Origin: Escherichia coli
GTDB lineage: Bacteria; Pseudomonadota; Gammaproteobacteria; Enterobacterales; Enterobacteriaceae
NCBI RefSeq assembly: GCF_003018255.1
Contig: NZ_CP027440.1
DNA: 64,000 nt
Reading direction: 5' to 3' (one strand)
The notes under the pieces were generated by a model, which had not been told where the DNA came from, did no database searches, and saw only the letters and a program-made list of their open reading frames with translations. A program made the translations under genes and the position numbers. Below, in pieces: positions 4,311-39,571 of this stretch; position 1 is the stretch's first letter, and the number at the start of each line of letters is the position of its first letter.

Positions 4311-4379
4311 ATTGTATTCTCTTTAGTGGGCGTCAAAAAAAACGCCGGATTAACCGGCGTCTGACGACTGACTTAACGC

Positions 4380-6065
4380 TCAGGCTTTATTGTCCACTTT
4401 GCCGCGCGCTTCGTCACGTAATTCTCGTCGCAAAATTTTTCCGACGTTAGATTTCGGTAACTCATCACGAAACTCCACCAGCTTCGGTACTTTGTAGCCC
4501 GTGAGCTGACGGCGGCAAAAAGTCACCAGTGACTCTTCGGTAAGTGATGGATCTTTTTTCACAACGAAGATTTTCACCGCTTCGCCACTGGAGCCAGAAG
4601 GTACGCCAACAGCCGCGACTTCCTGTACGCCAGGATGCTGCATGACGACATCTTCAATCTCGTTGGGATAGACGTTAAAACCGGAAACCAGAATCATGTC
4701 TTTTTTACGATCGACAATACGCAGGAATCCTTCTTCATCCATCACCGCGATGTCGCCAGTGTGTAACCAGCCATTTTTGATGATTTCATCGGTAGCATCC
4801 GGACGCTGCCAGTAACCCAGCATCACCTGCGGTCCTTTGACACAAAGCTCACCTGGTTGACCCGGTGGTACTTCGTTGTCGTCGTCATCCACCAGTTTGG
4901 CTTCCGTCGACGGCACCGGCAAACCGATGCTACCACTATGATAATCAATATCATACGGGTTAACGCTGACCAGCGGCGCACACTCGGTCAGGCCATAACC
5001 TTCCAGCAGATACTGCCCTGTCAGTTTCACCCAACGTTCTGCCACCACTTGCTGAACAGGCATCCCACCGCCTGCGGAAAGGTGCAGACTGGAGAAATCC
5101 AGCTGCTGGAACTCTTTATTGTTCAGCAACGCATTGAATAAGGTGTTAACGCCAGTGATAGCGGTAAACGGATATTTCGCTAACTCTTTTACCAACCCTG
5201 GAATATCGCGCGGGTTAGTGATAAGCAGGTTCTGCCCACCCAGTTCGATAAACAGCAGGCAGTTAATGGTCAGTGCAAAAATGTGATAAAGCGGCAGCGC
5301 CGTCACCACCAGCTCTTTGCCCGGATGCAACAGCGGACCATAGGTCGCGTTAACCTGTTCCAGGTTCGCCAGCATATTGCGGTGAGTCAGCATCGCGCCT
5401 TTCGCCACACCAGTGGTACCGCCGGTGTATTGCAGGAAAGCTAAATCTTCCGGCACCAGTTCGGGTTTGACGTACTGCATCCGGTAGCCGTTGTGCAGGG
5501 CGCTACGAAATGAAATGGCATCTGGCAGATGGTATTTCGGCACCAGACGCTTGATGTATTTAACAACAAAATTGACTACCGTGCCTTTTGCCGTAGATAG
5601 CTGATCGCCCATACGGGTCAGAATTACGTGCTGAACGGCGGTTTTATCAACCACTTTTTCCAGAGTGTGGGCAAAGTTAGACACGATAACAATCGCCGAT
5701 GCGCCGCTATCGTTAAGCTGATGCTCAAGTTCACGCGGGGTATACAACGGGTTAACGTTTACGACAATCATCCCGGCACGCAAAATGCCAAACAGCGCCA
5801 CCGGATATTGCAATAAATTAGGCATCATCAACGCAACGCGATCGCCTTTCTTCAGTCCCAACCCTTGTTGCAAATAAGCGGCAAACGCGCGACTGCGTTC
5901 TTCCAGTTTGCGGAAGGTCATCACCTCCCCCATATTCACAAACGCGGGTTGATCGGCGTAGCGCGCGACCGACTGCTCAAACATATCTACCAGAGATTGA
6001 TAACGGTCAGGGTTGATCTCCGTCGGAACGTCCGCGGGATAACGGTTAAGCCAAACCTTCTTCAA
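4380..6065 (-). CDS. fadD: Long-chain fatty-acid CoA ligase FadD, 561 aa, TTG start
   Basis: ORF 4380..6131 minus; known N-terminus [10 protein letters not shown] begins at the TTG codon at 6063-6065; AMP-binding motif [12 protein letters not shown] present. Confidence 0.93.
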
Positions 6066-19398: not shown

Positions 19399-20199
19399 AT
19401 GGAGATTACCACTCTTCAAATTGTGCTGGTATTTATCGTAGCCTGTATCGCAGGTATGGGATCAATCCTCGATGAATTTCAGTTTCACCGTCCGCTAATC
19501 GCGTGTACCCTGGTGGGTATCGTTCTTGGCGATATGAAAACCGGTATTATTATCGGTGGTACGCTGGAAATGATCGCGCTGGGCTGGATGAACATCGGTG
19601 CTGCAGTTGCGCCTGACGCCGCTCTGGCTTCCATCATTTCTACTATTCTGGTTATCGCAGGTCATCAGAGCATTGGTGCAGGTATCGCACTGGCAATCCC
19701 TCTGGCCGCTGCGGGCCAGGTACTGACCATCATCGTTCGTACTATTACCGTTGCTTTCCAGCACGCTGCGGATAAGGCTGCTGATAACGGCAACCTGACA
19801 GCGATTTCCTGGATCCACGTTTCTTCTCTGTTCCTGCAAGCAATGCGTGTGGCTATTCCGGCCGTCATCGTTGCGCTGTCTGTTGGTACCAGCGAAGTAC
19901 AGAACATGCTGAACGCGATTCCGGAAGTGGTGACCAATGGTCTGAATATCGCCGGTGGCATGATCGTGGTGGTTGGTTATGCGATGGTTATCAACATGAT
20001 GCGTGCTGGCTACCTGATGCCGTTCTTCTACCTCGGCTTCGTAACCGCAGCATTCACCAACTTTAACCTGGTTGCTCTGGGTGTGATTGGTACTGTTATG
20101 GCAGTGCTCTACATCCAACTTAGCCCGAAATACAACCGCGTGGCCGGTGCGCCTGCTCAGGCAGCTGGTAACAACGATCTCGATAACGAACTGGACTAA
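19399..20199 (+). CDS. manY: Mannose PTS enzyme IIC (ManY), 266 aa
   Basis: ORF 19399..20199; polytopic membrane protein; SD aggaga upstream. Confidence 0.95.
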   Translation: MEITTLQIVLVFIVACIAGMGSILDEFQFHRPLIACTLVGIVLGDMKTGIIIGGTLEMIALGWMNIGAAVAPDAALASIISTILVIAGHQSIGAGIALAIPLAAAGQVLTIIVRTITVAFQHAADKAADNGNLTAISWIHVSSLFLQAMRVAIPAVIVALSVGTSEVQNMLNAIPEVVTNGLNIAGGMIVVVGYAMVINMMRAGYLMPFFYLGFVTAAFTNFNLVALGVIGTVMAVLYIQLSPKYNRVAGAPAQAAGNNDLDNELD

Positions 20200-20211
20200 C
20201 AGGTGAGCGAA

Positions 20212-21063
20212 ATGGTTGATACAACTCAAACTACCACCGAGAAAAAACTCACTCAAAGTGATATTCGTGGCGTCTTCCTGCGTTCTAACCTCTTCCAGGG
20301 TTCATGGAACTTCGAACGTATGCAGGCACTGGGTTTCTGCTTCTCTATGGTACCGGCAATTCGTCGACTCTACCCTGAGAACAACGAAGCTCGTAAACAA
20401 GCTATTCGCCGTCACCTGGAGTTCTTTAACACCCAGCCGTTCGTGGCTGCGCCGATTCTCGGCGTAACCCTGGCGCTGGAAGAACAGCGTGCTAATGGCG
20501 CAGAGATCGATGACGGTGCTATCAACGGTATCAAAGTCGGTTTGATGGGGCCGCTGGCTGGTGTAGGCGACCCGATCTTCTGGGGAACCGTACGTCCGGT
20601 ATTTGCAGCACTGGGGGCCGGTATCGCAATGAGCGGCAGCCTGTTAGGTCCGCTGCTGTTCTTCATCTTGTTTAACCTGGTGCGTCTGGCAACCCGTTAC
20701 TACGGCGTAGCGTATGGTTACTCCAAAGGTATCGATATCGTTAAAGATATGGGTGGTGGCTTCCTGCAAAAACTGACGGAAGGGGCGTCTATCCTCGGCC
20801 TGTTTGTCATGGGGGCATTGGTTAACAAGTGGACACATGTCAACATCCCGCTGGTGGTCTCTCGCATTACTGACCAGACGGGCAAAGAACACGTTACCAC
20901 TGTCCAGACTATTCTGGACCAGTTAATGCCAGGCCTGGTACCACTGCTGCTGACCTTTGCTTGTATGTGGCTACTGCGCAAAAAAGTTAACCCGCTGTGG
21001 ATCATCGTTGGCTTCTTCGTCATCGGTATCGCTGGTTACGCTTGCGGCCTGCTGGGACTGTAA
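20212..21063 (+). CDS. manZ: Mannose PTS enzyme IID (ManZ), 283 aa (alternative GTG start at 20203 would give 286 aa)
   Basis: ORF 20203..21063; ATG at 20212 is preceded by SD aggtga with good spacing. Confidence 0.9.
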   Translation: MVDTTQTTTEKKLTQSDIRGVFLRSNLFQGSWNFERMQALGFCFSMVPAIRRLYPENNEARKQAIRRHLEFFNTQPFVAAPILGVTLALEEQRANGAEIDDGAINGIKVGLMGPLAGVGDPIFWGTVRPVFAALGAGIAMSGSLLGPLLFFILFNLVRLATRYYGVAYGYSKGIDIVKDMGGGFLQKLTEGASILGLFVMGALVNKWTHVNIPLVVSRITDQTGKEHVTTVQTILDQLMPGLVPLLLTFACMWLLRKKVNPLWIIVGFFVIGIAGYACGLLGL

Positions 21064-21078
21064 GACTGTTGTACACTA

Positions 21079-21105
21079 CCGGGGCCTTTTGGCCCCGTTT
21101 TTTTA
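21079..21105 (+). terminator. manXYZ intrinsic terminator
   Basis: ccggggcc-tttt-ggccccg stem-loop followed by ttttttt. Confidence 0.75.
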
Positions 21106-21117
21106 TCTGGAGGATTA

Positions 21118-21576
21118 ATGACAATCACGGACCTGGTACTGATTCTTTTCATCGCCGCACTCCTGGCCTTCGCGATCTACGATCAGTTCATCATGCCCCG
21201 CCGTAACGGCCCCACTCTGCTGGCAATTCCTTTGCTCCGGCGTGGTCGCATCGATAGCGTTATCTTCGTCGGATTGATTGTCATTCTTATCTATAACAAC
21301 GTCACGAATCATGGCGCGCTAATAACAACATGGTTATTAAGTGCACTGGCTCTGATGGGTTTTTATATATTCTGGATCCGCGTTCCGAAGATCATCTTTA
21401 AACAAAAAGGTTTTTTCTTCGCCAATGTCTGGATTGAATATAGCCGAATCAAAGCGATGAACTTGTCGGAAGATGGCGTGTTGGTGATGCAATTAGAACA
21501 GCGTCGGCTGTTAATCCGCGTTCGAAATATCGACGATCTGGAAAAAATTTATAAGCTTCTCGTTTCAACTCAATAA
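21118..21576 (+). CDS. yobD: UPF0266 inner-membrane protein YobD, 152 aa
   Basis: ORF 21118..21576; hydrophobic translation; SD ggagga upstream. Confidence 0.9.
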
Positions 21577-21593
21577 GTTATCAATTTAGCCAA

Positions 21594-21642
21594 AGCTATG
21601 TTTAGTGTATTTTTAATAATCAGACATAGCTTAGGCTATATT
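21594..21642. promoter_or_regulatory. Candidate MntR operator(s) upstream of mntP
   Basis: Palindromic ACATAGC-ttag-GCTATATT at 21624-21642 and half-site GCTATGTTT at 21595-21603. Confidence 0.45.
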
Positions 21643-21774
21643 ACCCCTTCCCTTATTTGTTATTTATTTTAACGTTTCATTGATATATAAATCTAAATGA
21701 AAATCGTTATCAATAAAGCAATGAAATAATATATTCCAACAGTTGTTTTATATTCTCAAAATATGTTAAGGTTG

Positions 21775-21960
21775 CGCCCTCATTTGGGGAGTAGCCGATT
21801 TCCAGATTCCGGAAATGTACGTGTCAACATACTCGTTGCAAAACGTGGCACGTACGGACTGAACACTTTCAGTCAGGCGAGACCATATGCACATCAATCG
21901 CTATGCCTGCATGAACGCGAAAACCATCGCGGTTTGTCGTTCATGTATGCATGTTTGCTG
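21775..21960 (+). ncRNA. mntP 5' leader carrying yybP-ykoY-class Mn(2+) riboswitch (boundaries approximate)
   Basis: Long non-coding leader upstream of mntP containing the GGGGAGTAGCC motif and paired distal elements that I recognise as the yybP-ykoY fold; only short spurious ORFs here. Confidence 0.6.
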
Positions 21961-22004
21961 GGGGCGATGATGTGTTTTATGGATACCCCGGTCAGGACGT
22001 TGTC

Positions 22005-22571
22005 ATGAATATCACTGCTACTATTCTTCTTGCGTTTGGTATGTCGATGGATGCATTTGCTGCATCAATCGGTAAAGGTGCCACCCTCCATAAACCGAAA
22101 TTTTCTGAAGCGTTGCGAACCGGCCTTATTTTTGGTGCTGTCGAAACCCTGACGCCGCTGATCGGCTGGGGAATGGGCATGTTAGCCAGCCGGTTTGTCC
22201 TTGAATGGAACCACTGGATTGCGTTTGTGCTGCTGATATTCCTCGGCGGGCGAATGATTATTGAGGGTTTTCGTGGCGCAGATGATGAAGATGAAGAGCC
22301 GCGCCGTCGACACGGTTTCTGGCTACTGGTAACCACCGCGATTGCCACCAGCCTGGATGCCATGGCTGTGGGTGTTGGTCTTGCTTTCCTTCAGGTCAAC
22401 ATTATCGCGACCGCATTGGCCATTGGTTGTGCAACCTTGATTATGTCGACATTAGGGATGATGGTTGGTCGCTTTATCGGCTCAATTATTGGGAAAAAAG
22501 CGGAAATTCTCGGCGGGCTGGTGCTGATCGGCATCGGCGTCCAGATCCTCTGGACGCACTTCCACGGTTAA
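22005..22571 (+). CDS. mntP: Mn(2+) efflux pump MntP (YebN), 188 aa
   Basis: Internal ATG at 22005 of ORF 21951..22571; membrane protein. Confidence 0.92.
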
Positions 22572-23377
22572 TAAGAACGCTGCCAGAGGTGAATATTAAA
22601 GTCCGTCTGGCAGTCGAACACTTCTTTTGCTGCCAGTGTTTGCCAGACTTCTGGCTTCGCACGCCAGGCAAACGGCGTCATCTGCAATAATGCGACGGCT
22701 TCATCACCGCGAAGACGCATCGGATAACACAACTCATCACTCTGCTGTAATGTAAAACCTTCGAGTTGTTCTGCATGTGGTGCATGAAGATGTACTTCAT
22801 TGTAAATCAGCCCCTTCAGCTCCATCAAATGTCGCGGTCCCGGCGTGGCAGTAATGACCCAACCGCCAGGCTTCACTACTCGCGCTAATTCTTCTGCTTT
22901 ACACGGCGCGTAAATACGTATTATGGCGTCCATACTGGTATCGGAAAACGGCAAACGGTGGCTGGAAGCAACACAAAAAGTGACCTGCGGATAGCGTTTC
23001 GCCGCCGCTTTTATCGCAACCTTCGAAACATCCAGACCAAACGTGGTGATTTCGGGCAACGCATCGGCAAATGCGTGTGTGTAATACCCTTCACCACAGC
23101 CAATATCCAGCACCGCCGTGGCCTTTTCATCAAGCCGTTCCCGCAGTTGGGCGACAATTGCATCACGCAGCGGCTGATAATGTCCGGCATCTAAGAATGC
23201 GCGGCGTGCTTGCATCATTTCCGCGCTGTCGCCCGGATCACGAGACCGTTTATGCTGAACGGGCAGCAGATTGACATACCCTTCTTTCGCCATATCAAAC
23301 TGATGTCGCTGGGGACAGATATAGCTGTTTTTTTCACGCGAAAGAGGCTGATGGCAAAGTGGACAGGAAAACGACAT
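22568..23377 (-). CDS. rlmA: 23S rRNA m1G745 methyltransferase RlmA (RrmA), 269 aa
   Basis: ORF 22568..23377 minus; N-terminal Cys4 zinc motif (CPLCHQ...CPQRH) plus SAM-MTase motif LDIGCGEG. Confidence 0.93.
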
Positions 23378-23468
23378 GACAACTCCGGCAGGATACTAAA
23401 GGCCGCAAGTGTAACGCGAATCACGCGGCGGGCAAATATCCGAACGACTGGAGCGAAGATAAAGCAAA

Positions 23469-23497
23469 GTAAAAAGCCTCGCATTCGACGAGGCTTT
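23469..23497 (-). terminator. cspC intrinsic terminator
   Basis: Minus-strand RNA forms gcctcg / cgaggc stem followed by uuuuu. Confidence 0.7.
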
Positions 23498-23542
23498 ATA
23501 GCGAGATTGAAGCGTATTCACACTTCAGATCAGTGGATTCGA

Positions 23543-23752
23543 TCAGATAGCTGTTACGTTAACAGCTGCCGGACCTTTCTGACCGTCCTGAATTTCGAAC
23601 TCAACGTTCTGACCTTCAGCCAGAGTTTTGAAACCATTACCCTGGATAGCAGAGAAGTGTACGAACACGTCTTTGCTGCCATCAGCCGGAGTAATGAAGC
23701 CAAAACCTTTAGACTCGTTGAACCACTTAACCTGACCTTTAATCTTTGCCAT
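23543..23752 (-). CDS. cspC: Cold-shock-domain protein CspC, 69 aa
   Basis: ORF 23543..23752 minus; [20 protein letters not shown] with RNP motifs. Confidence 0.96.
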
Positions 23753-23764
23753 TTGAAAAATTCC

Positions 23765-23908
23765 TTAGATTGTTTTCTTCGCCCGCAGGCATAACATAGA
23801 TAAAACTGACACATTACTGCATGAGGCACCAATATAAGGCTCGGCAGAGAAGCGGTATTCAACGTCAACGTGTTTACTCAGGACTTCTTTACTGAAAATG
23901 CCACACAT
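23765..23908 (-). CDS. yobF: Small stress-induced protein YobF, 47 aa (co-transcribed with cspC)
   Basis: Manual minus-strand translation [47 protein letters not shown]; ends 12 nt before cspC start; below ORF-track cut-off. Confidence 0.85.
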
Positions 23909-24532
23909 AAACAGAACTGTACCTCGTTTAACCCGAAATCTGTTATCACATACAACGTTAATTATGGCAAGCCATTTTTAAACATGTCTCGATCAGACGC
24001 ACAAATCTCGATACGTCTTCCACTTTTTTTGCACACTTATGCAACGGAATACGCGCCGATATATCATTGTGCTTAACCTTGCCAGTTCAGGCAGATACTT
24101 AAACTGACGTATTTTCTAACATAGTTCAATAAGTTCAGTTGTTCCAGGCCAGTGGGAGAAGTTATTACATAGTGCGTGCAATATCACATTTTCTGCTATG
24201 CAATGAATAAAAAGTTATATCACTTTTTCTCATAAAACAGTCAGTTAACGGCTATCGATCACCCCAAAGAGAAGTCAATCGCCAAAGGTATTGTAAATTT
24301 AAAATAAGAAAAATTGATGAATGCGCAAAAAAATCAAGAGAGAAACGTTTCGCTAATAAATAATACCACGCTTAATCACAAATCCGATGTAAACATCCTA
24401 ATAAATTAATGGGCTAAATATCTTTTTCTGATATCCCGTTACGCAAATAAATAATATGATAATTATTTGAAGTCAGACCAGAGTTTTAATTTGAAGCAGT
24501 TGCACCATGACAGTGCGTATAATCAGGATGAA

Positions 24533-39322: not shown

Positions 39323-39571
39323 TAACAAGAATGTTAAAAAACGCTGGACGCAGACAGTAGAGTGTGTGTTATGGTTGACTATAAAGTCAGCGAAGGGAAT
39401 GCTTCTGGCTTTTAACAGATAAAAAGAGACCGAACACGATTCCTGTATTCGGTCCAGGGAAATGGCTCTTGGGAGAGAGCCGTGCGCTAAAAGTTGGCAT
39501 TAATGCAGGCTTAGTTGCCTTGCTCTTTAAGAATAGATGACGACGCCAGGTTTTCCAGTTTGCGTGCAAAA
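39323..39571 (+). ncRNA. ryeA: RyeA (SraC) sRNA, antisense partner of SdsR (boundaries approximate)
   Basis: Non-coding pphA-yebY spacer; plus-strand transcript position inferred from recall of the ryeA/ryeB overlapping arrangement. Confidence 0.5.
39421..39523 (-). ncRNA. sdsR: SdsR (RyeB) sigma-S-dependent sRNA
   Basis: Minus strand reads GCAAGGCAACTAAGCCTGCATTAATGCCAACTTTTAGCGCACGGCTCTCTCCCAAGAGCCATTTCCCTGGACCGAATACAGGAATCGTGTTCGGTCTCTTTTT, ending in a terminator hairpin plus U-tract. Confidence 0.8.

Follow-up and report, generated by a model that had tools for sequence, protein, structure and literature searches.

The closest described system is the promoter and 5' UTR of mntP (yebN) in E. 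coli K-12 (Waters 2011; Dambach 2015; Price 2015, PDB 4Y1M; PMC12153347; PMC11647493), which has the same locus and gene order as the DNA treated here. That mntP is under the dual control of MntR, with Fur and H-NS, and of a yybP-ykoY riboswitch, plus Rho termination, is already published for that strain. The gene is activated by Mn-MntR (PMC11647493, PMC8632737) and is also regulated by Fur (PMC11647493, PMC8632737), and according to a review (PMC8632737, citing Dambach 2015) H-NS represses it while MntR and Mn-loaded Fur relieve the repression. Direct and selective Mn2+ binding, as well as Mn-dependent gene activation, have been reported for the K-12 riboswitch sequence (PMC12153347, PMC9603457, PMC11647493), and its aptamer is represented by a crystal structure, PDB 4Y1M, and by co-transcriptional probing (PMC12153347). 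Control of mntP is translational (PMC9603457), and there is Rho-dependent termination in the mntP 5' UTR, partly suppressed by Mn (PMC11647493). Riboswitch control of mntP is described in PMC11647493, PMC12153347, and PMC8632737, and these same sources bear out the original prediction made for this DNA, that MntR activation and a riboswitch on one Mn exporter gene is a known E. coli arrangement.

Our reading is that the region is the native E. coli mntP control region, with two MntR boxes upstream and a Mn riboswitch in the mRNA leader, acting at two levels, and we give this a probability of about 95%.

The yobD-mntP spacer

The window, meaning the whole stretch of 64,000 nucleotides that was analyzed, belongs to the E. 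coli chromosome and has the gene order manX-manY-manZ-yobD-(spacer)-mntP, while the opposite strand carries rlmA and a cspC-type gene, according to the ORF list and the RefSeq annotation of the K-12 counterpart. The ORF upstream of the spacer is YobD/DUF986 by protein family match. Between its last base, 21576, and the mntP ATG at 22005 lies the intergenic region 21577-22004 (+ strand), whose 428 bp hold all of the control elements. The original prediction had drawn the same non-coding stretch before mntP, and was also right that the upstream part is AT-rich and the downstream part GC-balanced; GC is 0.27 for 21577-21779 and 0.49-0.50 for 21780-22004, with a window mean of 0.50. The mntP gene itself (22005-22571, + strand) encodes a manganese efflux pump of 188 aa that scores 413.6 bits against the NCBIfam equivalog NF008546 (cut-off 214) and has the RefSeq name mntP. 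Its start agrees with the RefSeq K-12 annotation. Read from the sequence, the translation signals span 21994-22007 (+ strand), with a Shine-Dalgarno AGGA at 21994-21997 and the start codon at 22005-22007, and the CAGGAC around the Shine-Dalgarno is kept in most relatives. RefSeq annotates no feature, and no riboswitch, in the yobD-mntP spacer.

Of 5426 complete E. coli genomes, 5422 carry the spacer, which is 100% identical to that of E. coli N3 and 98.1% identical to that of K-12. The difference from K-12 comes to eight substitutions over the 428 bp, which is strain-level variation only: three are upstream (21582, 21646, 21694), one is in the P4 loop (21864), three are in the apex of the expression platform (21929, 21933, 21938), and one is in the gap between the Shine-Dalgarno and the AUG (21999). 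Apart from the P4 loop base at 21864, which is C in place of T, the K-12 sequence is unchanged in both MntR boxes, the promoter block, and the aptamer.

The riboswitch aptamer

The yybP-ykoY Mn2+ aptamer is placed at 21780-21890 (+ strand) by an Rfam RF00080 match, by its fold, and by covariation. With helix names from our own mapping onto the scheme of PMC12153347, and all on the + strand, helix P1.1 pairs 21781-21787 with 21883-21889, the internal loop L1 has sides 21788-21793 (GGAGUA) and 21879-21882 (GAGA), helix P1.2 pairs 21794-21796 with 21876-21878, and the hairpins are P2 at 21798-21816, P3.1/L3/P3.2 at 21817-21855, with L3 ACAUACU at 21827-21833, and P4 at 21857-21874. The 5' side of L1 carries GGGGAGUAG and the 3' side a GAGACC-type sequence, and the extruded adenosine A21790 is the A11 of PMC12153347. 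The element GGGGAGTAG, by which a yybP-ykoY riboswitch had been called in the downstream part from about 21775, sits at 21786-21794, and GAGACC sits at 21879-21884; across 73 sequences the two vary little or not at all. The L3 loop GUCAACAUACU at 21823-21833 equals the Rfam consensus and is invariant or nearly invariant across orthologs, and within it A21827 is A48.

The check proposed with the original prediction was a covariance-model scan with RF00080, and the lack of a significant match was to count against it. A sensitive scan of the 4 kb at 20000-24000 finds RF00080 (Manganese/yybP-ykoY) on the + strand at 21778-21874. With E = 4e-9 this is a significant match, but its score of 41.9 bits is 3 bits below the gathering score of 45, that cut-off being an operational threshold and not a biological feature. 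For this reason, a scan of the whole window at the gathering threshold gives no RF00080 match at the mntP leader. The low score is explained by the printed model, which gives the 5' GGGGAGUAG no pairing partner, stops before the 3' strand of L1/P1.1, and needs a long deletion in the last loop. Each of 12 orthologous leaders matches RF00080, at scores of 35.5-53.1 bits, with 4 reaching the cut-off.

Folded in isolation, the 111 nt of 21780-21890 have as their minimum-free-energy (MFE) structure a four-way junction at -37.5 kcal/mol with z = -3.4, and RNAalifold independently predicts the same junction from the alignment. The two agree on its two legs, P1.1-L1-P1.2-P2 and P3.2-L3-P3.1-P4. The covariation alignment has 73 sequences, of which 72 are distinct orthologs. 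Over those 72, 96.4% of cells at the aptamer pairs hold standard pairs, and 19 of 36 pairs show compensatory changes, found in 178 cells; none of 500 shuffles matches any of these measures, and sliding the partners drops pairing to 25-45%. The aptamer lies in the 5' UTR of an MntP equivalog gene, with P1.1 overlapping the expression platform. The assignment of the leader element as a yybP-ykoY Mn riboswitch is supported by the significant Rfam match, by the L1 and L3 loops, and by the four-way junction with its covariation.

Predicted transcription start and promoter

The published numbering of the RNA gives a way to place the transcription start, the L1 adenosine being numbered A11 and the first L3 nucleotide A48 (PMC12153347). 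Only +1 at 21780 puts an A at both 21790 and 21827 in the right structural context. From this numbering we infer that the mntP transcript starts at 21780 and has a leader of 225 nt, which puts the start well upstream of 21950; a start downstream of that position would have spoken against the predicted leader. The mntP UTR reportedly has a length of 225 nt in Dambach 2015 as well, in agreement with the numbering.

Directly upstream of the aptamer, the 38 bp of 21742-21779 are nearly invariant among genera. Working back from the start at 21780, the promoter would be at 21743-21772 (+ strand), with -35 TTGTTT at 21743-21748, TG at 21764-21765, and -10 TAAGGT at 21767-21772. The 18-bp spacer contains the TG of an extended -10, and both hexamers are weak, which is why a consensus promoter scan did not find the promoter at 21743-21772; that the scan missed it fits an activator-dependent promoter. 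The matches that the consensus scan did return, at 21613-21642, 21707-21735, and 22000-27, fit neither the conserved block nor the start site and are rejected.

The MntR boxes

At the far end of the spacer from mntP there are two sequences resembling MntR boxes. The search pattern was ACATAGC-N4-GCTATGT, confirmed against the K-12 mntH promoter, which carries a perfect box, ACATAGCAAAGGCTATGT, just upstream of the start codon and which is MntR-repressed (PMC8632737). The proximal box, box 2, is ACATAGC-ttag-GCTATAT at 21624-21641 (unstranded), with 1 mismatch to the pattern and a center at about -147.5; the distal box, box 1, is ATTTAGC-caaa-GCTATGT at 21584-21601 (unstranded), with 2 mismatches and a center at about -187.5 from the inferred start. 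With the start at 21780, the centers are near -187 and -147. Compared with the perfect mntH box, box 2 matches at 17 of 18 positions and box 1 at 16 of 18. Over 19 nt, box 1 and box 2 show 89% complementarity. The palindrome ACATAGCTTAGGCTATAT(T), also written ACATAGCTTAGGCTATATT, was noticed beforehand at 21624-21642 as resembling an MntR box, and its 17/18 core bears this out. Also noticed was a half-site, GCTATGTTT, at 21595-21603; the sequence there is indeed MntR-like, yet it is not a half-site but the right half of the complete box at 21584-21601. The left half of box 1 is degenerate in E. coli (ATTTAGC) and reads ATATAGC in most relatives.

To see how the boxes are kept, 80 mntP loci were taken from Enterobacteriaceae species genomes, 77 of them having enough upstream sequence, and boxes were called at up to 3 mismatches. 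Both boxes are found in 69 of the 77 loci, one in 6, and none in 2. The spacing of box 1 and box 2 is 40-45 bp, some four helical turns, in 68 of these loci and 51 bp in the other one. In 75 loci, box 2 and GGGGAGTAG are separated by 158-163 bp, even though leader lengths further downstream differ by over 50 nt. The constancy of position and spacing shows a conserved operator pair, while conservation alone does not show MntR binding. We regard the upstream element as supported as a pair of MntR-type operators in conserved fixed geometry, to which MntR is predicted to bind.

Rfam also gives weak mir-282 matches on both strands at 21572-21653. These merely reflect the paired palindromes and are rejected.

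The AT-rich spacer and the possible mode of MntR action

Between the boxes and the promoter there is an AT-rich spacer at 21645-21741 (unstranded) with GC of 0.21-0.25, presumed to be the H-NS-silenced stretch. It is mostly variable between genera except for a TTAACG run at about 21669-21674 and the block AAATCTAAATGAAAATCGTTATCAAT at 21689-21714 (unstranded), which is conserved at 85-95% or more in 78 upstream regions. The block includes a Fur-box-like 19-mer at 21693-21711, centered at about -79, that matches the consensus GATAATGATAATCATTATC at 14 of 19 positions and is the best in the leader. Searching for GATAATGATAATCATTATC with up to 3 mismatches found no site, and eight distinct sites in the window score at least 14/19, so that 14/19 alone is not unusual here. 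For that reason we call the block Fur-like and a candidate Fur site, a designation that rests on its conservation and on published Fur regulation of mntP.

One possibility is that MntR is a classical activator contacting RNA polymerase and not an anti-silencer. The boxes keep a spacing of some four helical turns and a constant distance (158-163 bp) to the promoter, which would suit a looped or phased contact, but the intervening DNA is extremely AT-rich and the box centers at about -147 and -187 are well beyond the usual positions of bacterial activators. The account in the review, H-NS repressing and MntR and Mn-Fur relieving (PMC8632737), also goes against direct contact, and we consider it unlikely. 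Anti-silencing is a model from the literature, and the far-upstream boxes with the AT-rich spacer would fit MntR acting as an H-NS anti-silencer.

The expression platform

The platform folds as a long hairpin at 21888-21976 (+ strand), with basal strands 21888-21901 and 21964-21976 and a hypervariable apex, and it appears both in free folds and in folds with the aptamer enforced. At its base, 9 of 13 pairs have compensatory changes. The platform length from GAGACC to ATG is 75-128 nt among genera, and E. coli has a platform 12 nt longer than other Escherichia. Two elements following the hairpin have competing partners. The first is UAUGG at 21978-21982 (+ strand), complementary to the 3' strand of P1.1, CCAUA at 21883-21887, in what would be a competing (OFF) pairing; it extends the platform hairpin in the unconstrained MFE fold of E. 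coli and of 5 other genera, and 96.8% of cells are paired in an almost invariant way that leaves no covariation. In the published scheme, the 3' half of P1.1 pairs either within the aptamer or with the platform (the 'switch helix'), and L1/P1.1 is disrupted without Mn when the transcript is about 205 nt long (PMC12153347). The competing pairing of UAUGG with CCAUA agrees with this switch helix and with the decision point at about 205 nt.

The second is the box CCCCGGU at 21986-21992 (+ strand), just upstream of the Shine-Dalgarno, with the alternative partners UUGGGG at 21784-21789, in the 5' strand of L1/P1.1, and a conserved twin, GCUGGGG at 21957-21963. In the fold of the full leader, the GGGG of L1 at 21786-21789 pairs with CCCC at 21986-21989, and competing pairings are seen in six genera. 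The long-range CCCC-GGGG pairing is kept in 99.7% of cells by way of one-sided changes only, and the local hairpin of CCCCGGU with the twin in 99.2%, with 2 compensatory pairs that occur only in four sequences of the Cedecea/Buttiauxella clade. Because the competing pairings are almost invariant, they can hardly be judged by covariation.

The exact gating of the ribosome-binding site is inferred. Tentatively, it may be a three-way competition, with CCCCGGU pairing with UUGGGG when Mn2+ is absent, or with the twin GCUGGGG. When the aptamer is enforced, in silico folds of six genera give no consistent opening of the Shine-Dalgarno AGGA at 21994-21997, and this is in line with published probing, which has no clear Mn-dependent reactivity at the ribosome-binding site (PMC12153347). 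No description of the twin-box hairpin was found in the literature examined, and Dambach 2015 may already contain one. The leader at 21840-21900 has a mild excess of C over G only, from which no claim of a rut site is made.

A terminator scan reports a hairpin at 21916-21931, followed by GTTTGTCGTT, and since many Firmicutes yybP-ykoY members act by termination (PMC8632737) this could be taken to mean that the leader is mainly a transcription-terminating riboswitch. We consider that very improbable: the hairpin is the apex of the platform stem, where both length and sequence are hypervariable between genera, the K-12 version (CGCG...CACG) is weaker, shuffled sequence gives about as many such sites (0.8 expected), and the literature has translational control and Rho-dependent termination, not intrinsic termination (PMC12153347, PMC11647493). 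The candidate intrinsic terminator at 21916-21931, the sole terminator-like site, is accordingly rejected as of chance frequency and not conserved, and the switch helix is thus not overlapped by any conserved GC-rich hairpin with a U-tract.

Leader peptides and chance repeats as unlikely alternatives

Translation of a leader peptide might instead be coupled to that of mntP, and there are two candidate frames, an 81-codon ORF at 21763-22008 that ends in an ATGA overlap at the mntP start, and a 206-codon in-frame extension of mntP from an ATG at 21951. This also has very little probability, since the first codon of the 81-codon ORF precedes the transcription start, the open part of the overlapping frame ranges from 0 to 309 nt among 77 orthologous loci, with peptides that are absent or unrelated, the upstream in-frame ATG is not conserved, and the nucleotides of the 3' leader are conserved across frame shifts. 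Both leader peptides and an N-terminal extension of mntP are rejected as lacking conservation as coding sequence.

The least credible alternative, that the palindromes upstream arose by chance as inverted repeats of AT-rich DNA and are not regulator sites, can appeal to a region with GC of 0.21-0.30 and many short inverted repeats and to an unremarkable count when 3 mismatches are allowed (2.2 sites expected in the window, 6 found), but is excluded by the conservation data, as both boxes keep the core TAGC-N4-GCTAT at 97-100% across genera, with variation in the 4-nt spacer and the flanks, the position and spacing are fixed in 69/77 loci against 3 occurrences of the MntR pattern in 259 kb of background outside the operator zone, the only 2 matches with up to 2 mismatches in the 64-kb window are both in the mntP spacer (0.20 expected), and a perfect copy of the box is at the MntR-repressed mntH promoter.

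Proposed mechanism

In the mechanism that we propose for the mntP control region, this analysis supplies the sequences and how far they are conserved, the fold of the aptamer, the hairpin of the platform, and the competing pairings, and the literature supplies the action of MntR, Fur, H-NS, and Rho and the binding of Mn2+. Two MntR operators near -187 and -147 would stand at the far end of an AT-rich, H-NS-silenced stretch, which would also hold the Fur-like block near -79 and the weak extended -10 promoter. At high Mn2+, Mn-MntR would bind the boxes (with Mn-loaded Fur binding as well, according to the literature), and this would raise initiation at about 21780, probably by countering H-NS and not by direct contact with RNA polymerase. 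The first 111 nt of the 225-nt leader would then fold as the yybP-ykoY four-way-junction aptamer, in which Mn2+ between L1 and L3 would lock helix P1.1. Without Mn2+, UAUGG (21978-21982) would capture the 3' strand of P1.1 and CCCC (21986-21989) would pair with the L1 GGGG, giving a conformer that would be poorly translated and also open to Rho-dependent termination. With Mn2+, the aptamer would resist this invasion, so that mntP translation would go up and Rho termination would be partly suppressed.

As a discovery, the region carries little weight, the strain departing from K-12 by a few substitutions only. What it illustrates is that a structurally and genetically validated riboswitch can score under the Rfam gathering cut-off and hence be unannotated in the sampled E. 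coli RefSeq genomes; with such a sub-threshold score, scans that rely on the threshold only will miss the mntP riboswitch. Comparison of the loci fixes the exact, conserved coordinates of two complete MntR boxes, of the promoter, and of the Fur-like block, and it points to conserved competing pairings around the ribosome-binding site, where published probing was inconclusive. Added here to what was published are the second complete MntR box, the coordinates of promoter and start, the Fur-like block, the quantified covariation, the platform pairings, and the point on the Rfam cut-off. The promoter, the Fur-like block, the role of H-NS, Rho termination, and the expression platform go beyond the original prediction.

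Comparison with known systems

On the side of transcription, E. coli ftnA, where Fe-Fur reverses H-NS silencing (Nandal 2010, cited in PMC4676285), likewise has a metalloregulator far upstream of an AT-rich silenced promoter and working as an anti-silencer, with a different regulator and metal; for mntP, anti-silencing would be the corresponding model from the literature. B. subtilis mneP and mneS resemble mntP in that several upstream operators let a Mn-sensing regulator of the DtxR family activate a Mn efflux gene (PMC8632737), but mneP differs in having another regulator lineage and box sequence, no riboswitch, and three promoter-near boxes in contrast to two far upstream.

On the side of the RNA, the riboswitch of E. 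coli alx (ygjT) is, like that of mntP, a yybP-ykoY family member and a translational ON switch for a Mn exporter, with the same P1.1 switch-helix logic (PMC12153347). Unlike mntP, alx is without P2, so that it has a three-way junction, and it has a different L3, intrinsic terminators, and a response to alkaline pH (PMC12153347), whereas in mntP the four-way junction is complete and no terminator is conserved. Lactococcus lactis yoaB, Bacillus subtilis yybP/ykoY, and the Xanthomonas oryzae yybP-ykoY share the Mn2+ site of L1 and L3 and the four-way junction with two legs (PMC12153347). The Firmicute members of yybP-ykoY act by transcription termination (PMC8632737), whereas the enterobacterial mntP leader uses a long platform, of 75-128 nt, to gate translation and the access of Rho.

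Riboswitch scoring and other RNA elements

The mntP leader at 21778-21874 scores 41.9 bits against RF00080, the Rfam family of yybP-ykoY Mn riboswitches, which is under the family's gathering score of 45 (Rfam 15). Scores for 12 mntP leaders from orthologous enterobacterial loci (drawn from L003-L081) run from 35.5 to 53.1 bits, and 4 of these leaders pass the threshold of 45. The riboswitch at 21778-21874 has been experimentally validated, and the yobD-mntP spacer carries no annotated feature in the sampled RefSeq E. coli genomes.

Elsewhere in the window, a cspA-thermoregulator is a strong Rfam match (139.7 bits) on the minus strand at 23468-23928, where it takes in both the 5′ UTR and the coding sequence of a cspC-type cold-shock gene. 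This cold-shock gene lies downstream of rlmA and is named cspE in the sampled K-12 RefSeq record. Known small RNAs over their Rfam gathering scores are SraC/RyeA (39417-39561, plus strand), its antisense partner SdsR/RyeB (39421-39520, minus strand), and sroD (4336-4421, minus strand).

Upstream control regions

A strongly conserved block, AAATCTAAATGAAAATCGTTATCAAT, lies at 21689-21714, near -79 from the inferred transcription start, and includes a 14/19 match to the Fur consensus. GTTATCAAT occurs twice, at 21577 and 21706. We regard the block as a candidate Fur site, one that by its sequence alone is not statistically distinctive. In the K-12 mntH promoter (L082 1395-1440), a Fur-like GATAATCATTCTC adjoins the perfect MntR palindrome AAACATAGCAAAGGCTATGTTTT; a hypothetical ORF of 18 codons in RefSeq overlaps the mntH start at the same locus.

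In E. coli B1172 (NZ_CP120549.1; L083 1334-1708), a natural deletion fuses a truncated manZ to the mntP leader with the junction at about window position 21797. It takes out yobD, both MntR boxes, and the promoter; the aptamer loses its initial ~17 nt as well, GGGGAGUAG among them. As judged from this arrangement, mntP in B1172 would be without either Mn control.

Expression platform

The L1 G-run has a conserved twin, GCUGGGG (21957-21963), which can pair with the CCCCGGU box at 21986-21992, beside the Shine-Dalgarno sequence. Two compensatory pairs in this pairing are present in the Cedecea/Buttiauxella clade, and no description of it was found in the accessible literature.

The apex of the platform hairpin is hypervariable (window 21891-21976 and orthologous loci). 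Among genera, the distance from GAGACC to the ATG in the orthologous mntP loci is 75-128 nt, and the E. coli platform is 12 nt longer than in other Escherichia species. Compared with K-12, the studied strain differs at three apex positions, and its bases strengthen a small CGCG/CGCG hairpin.
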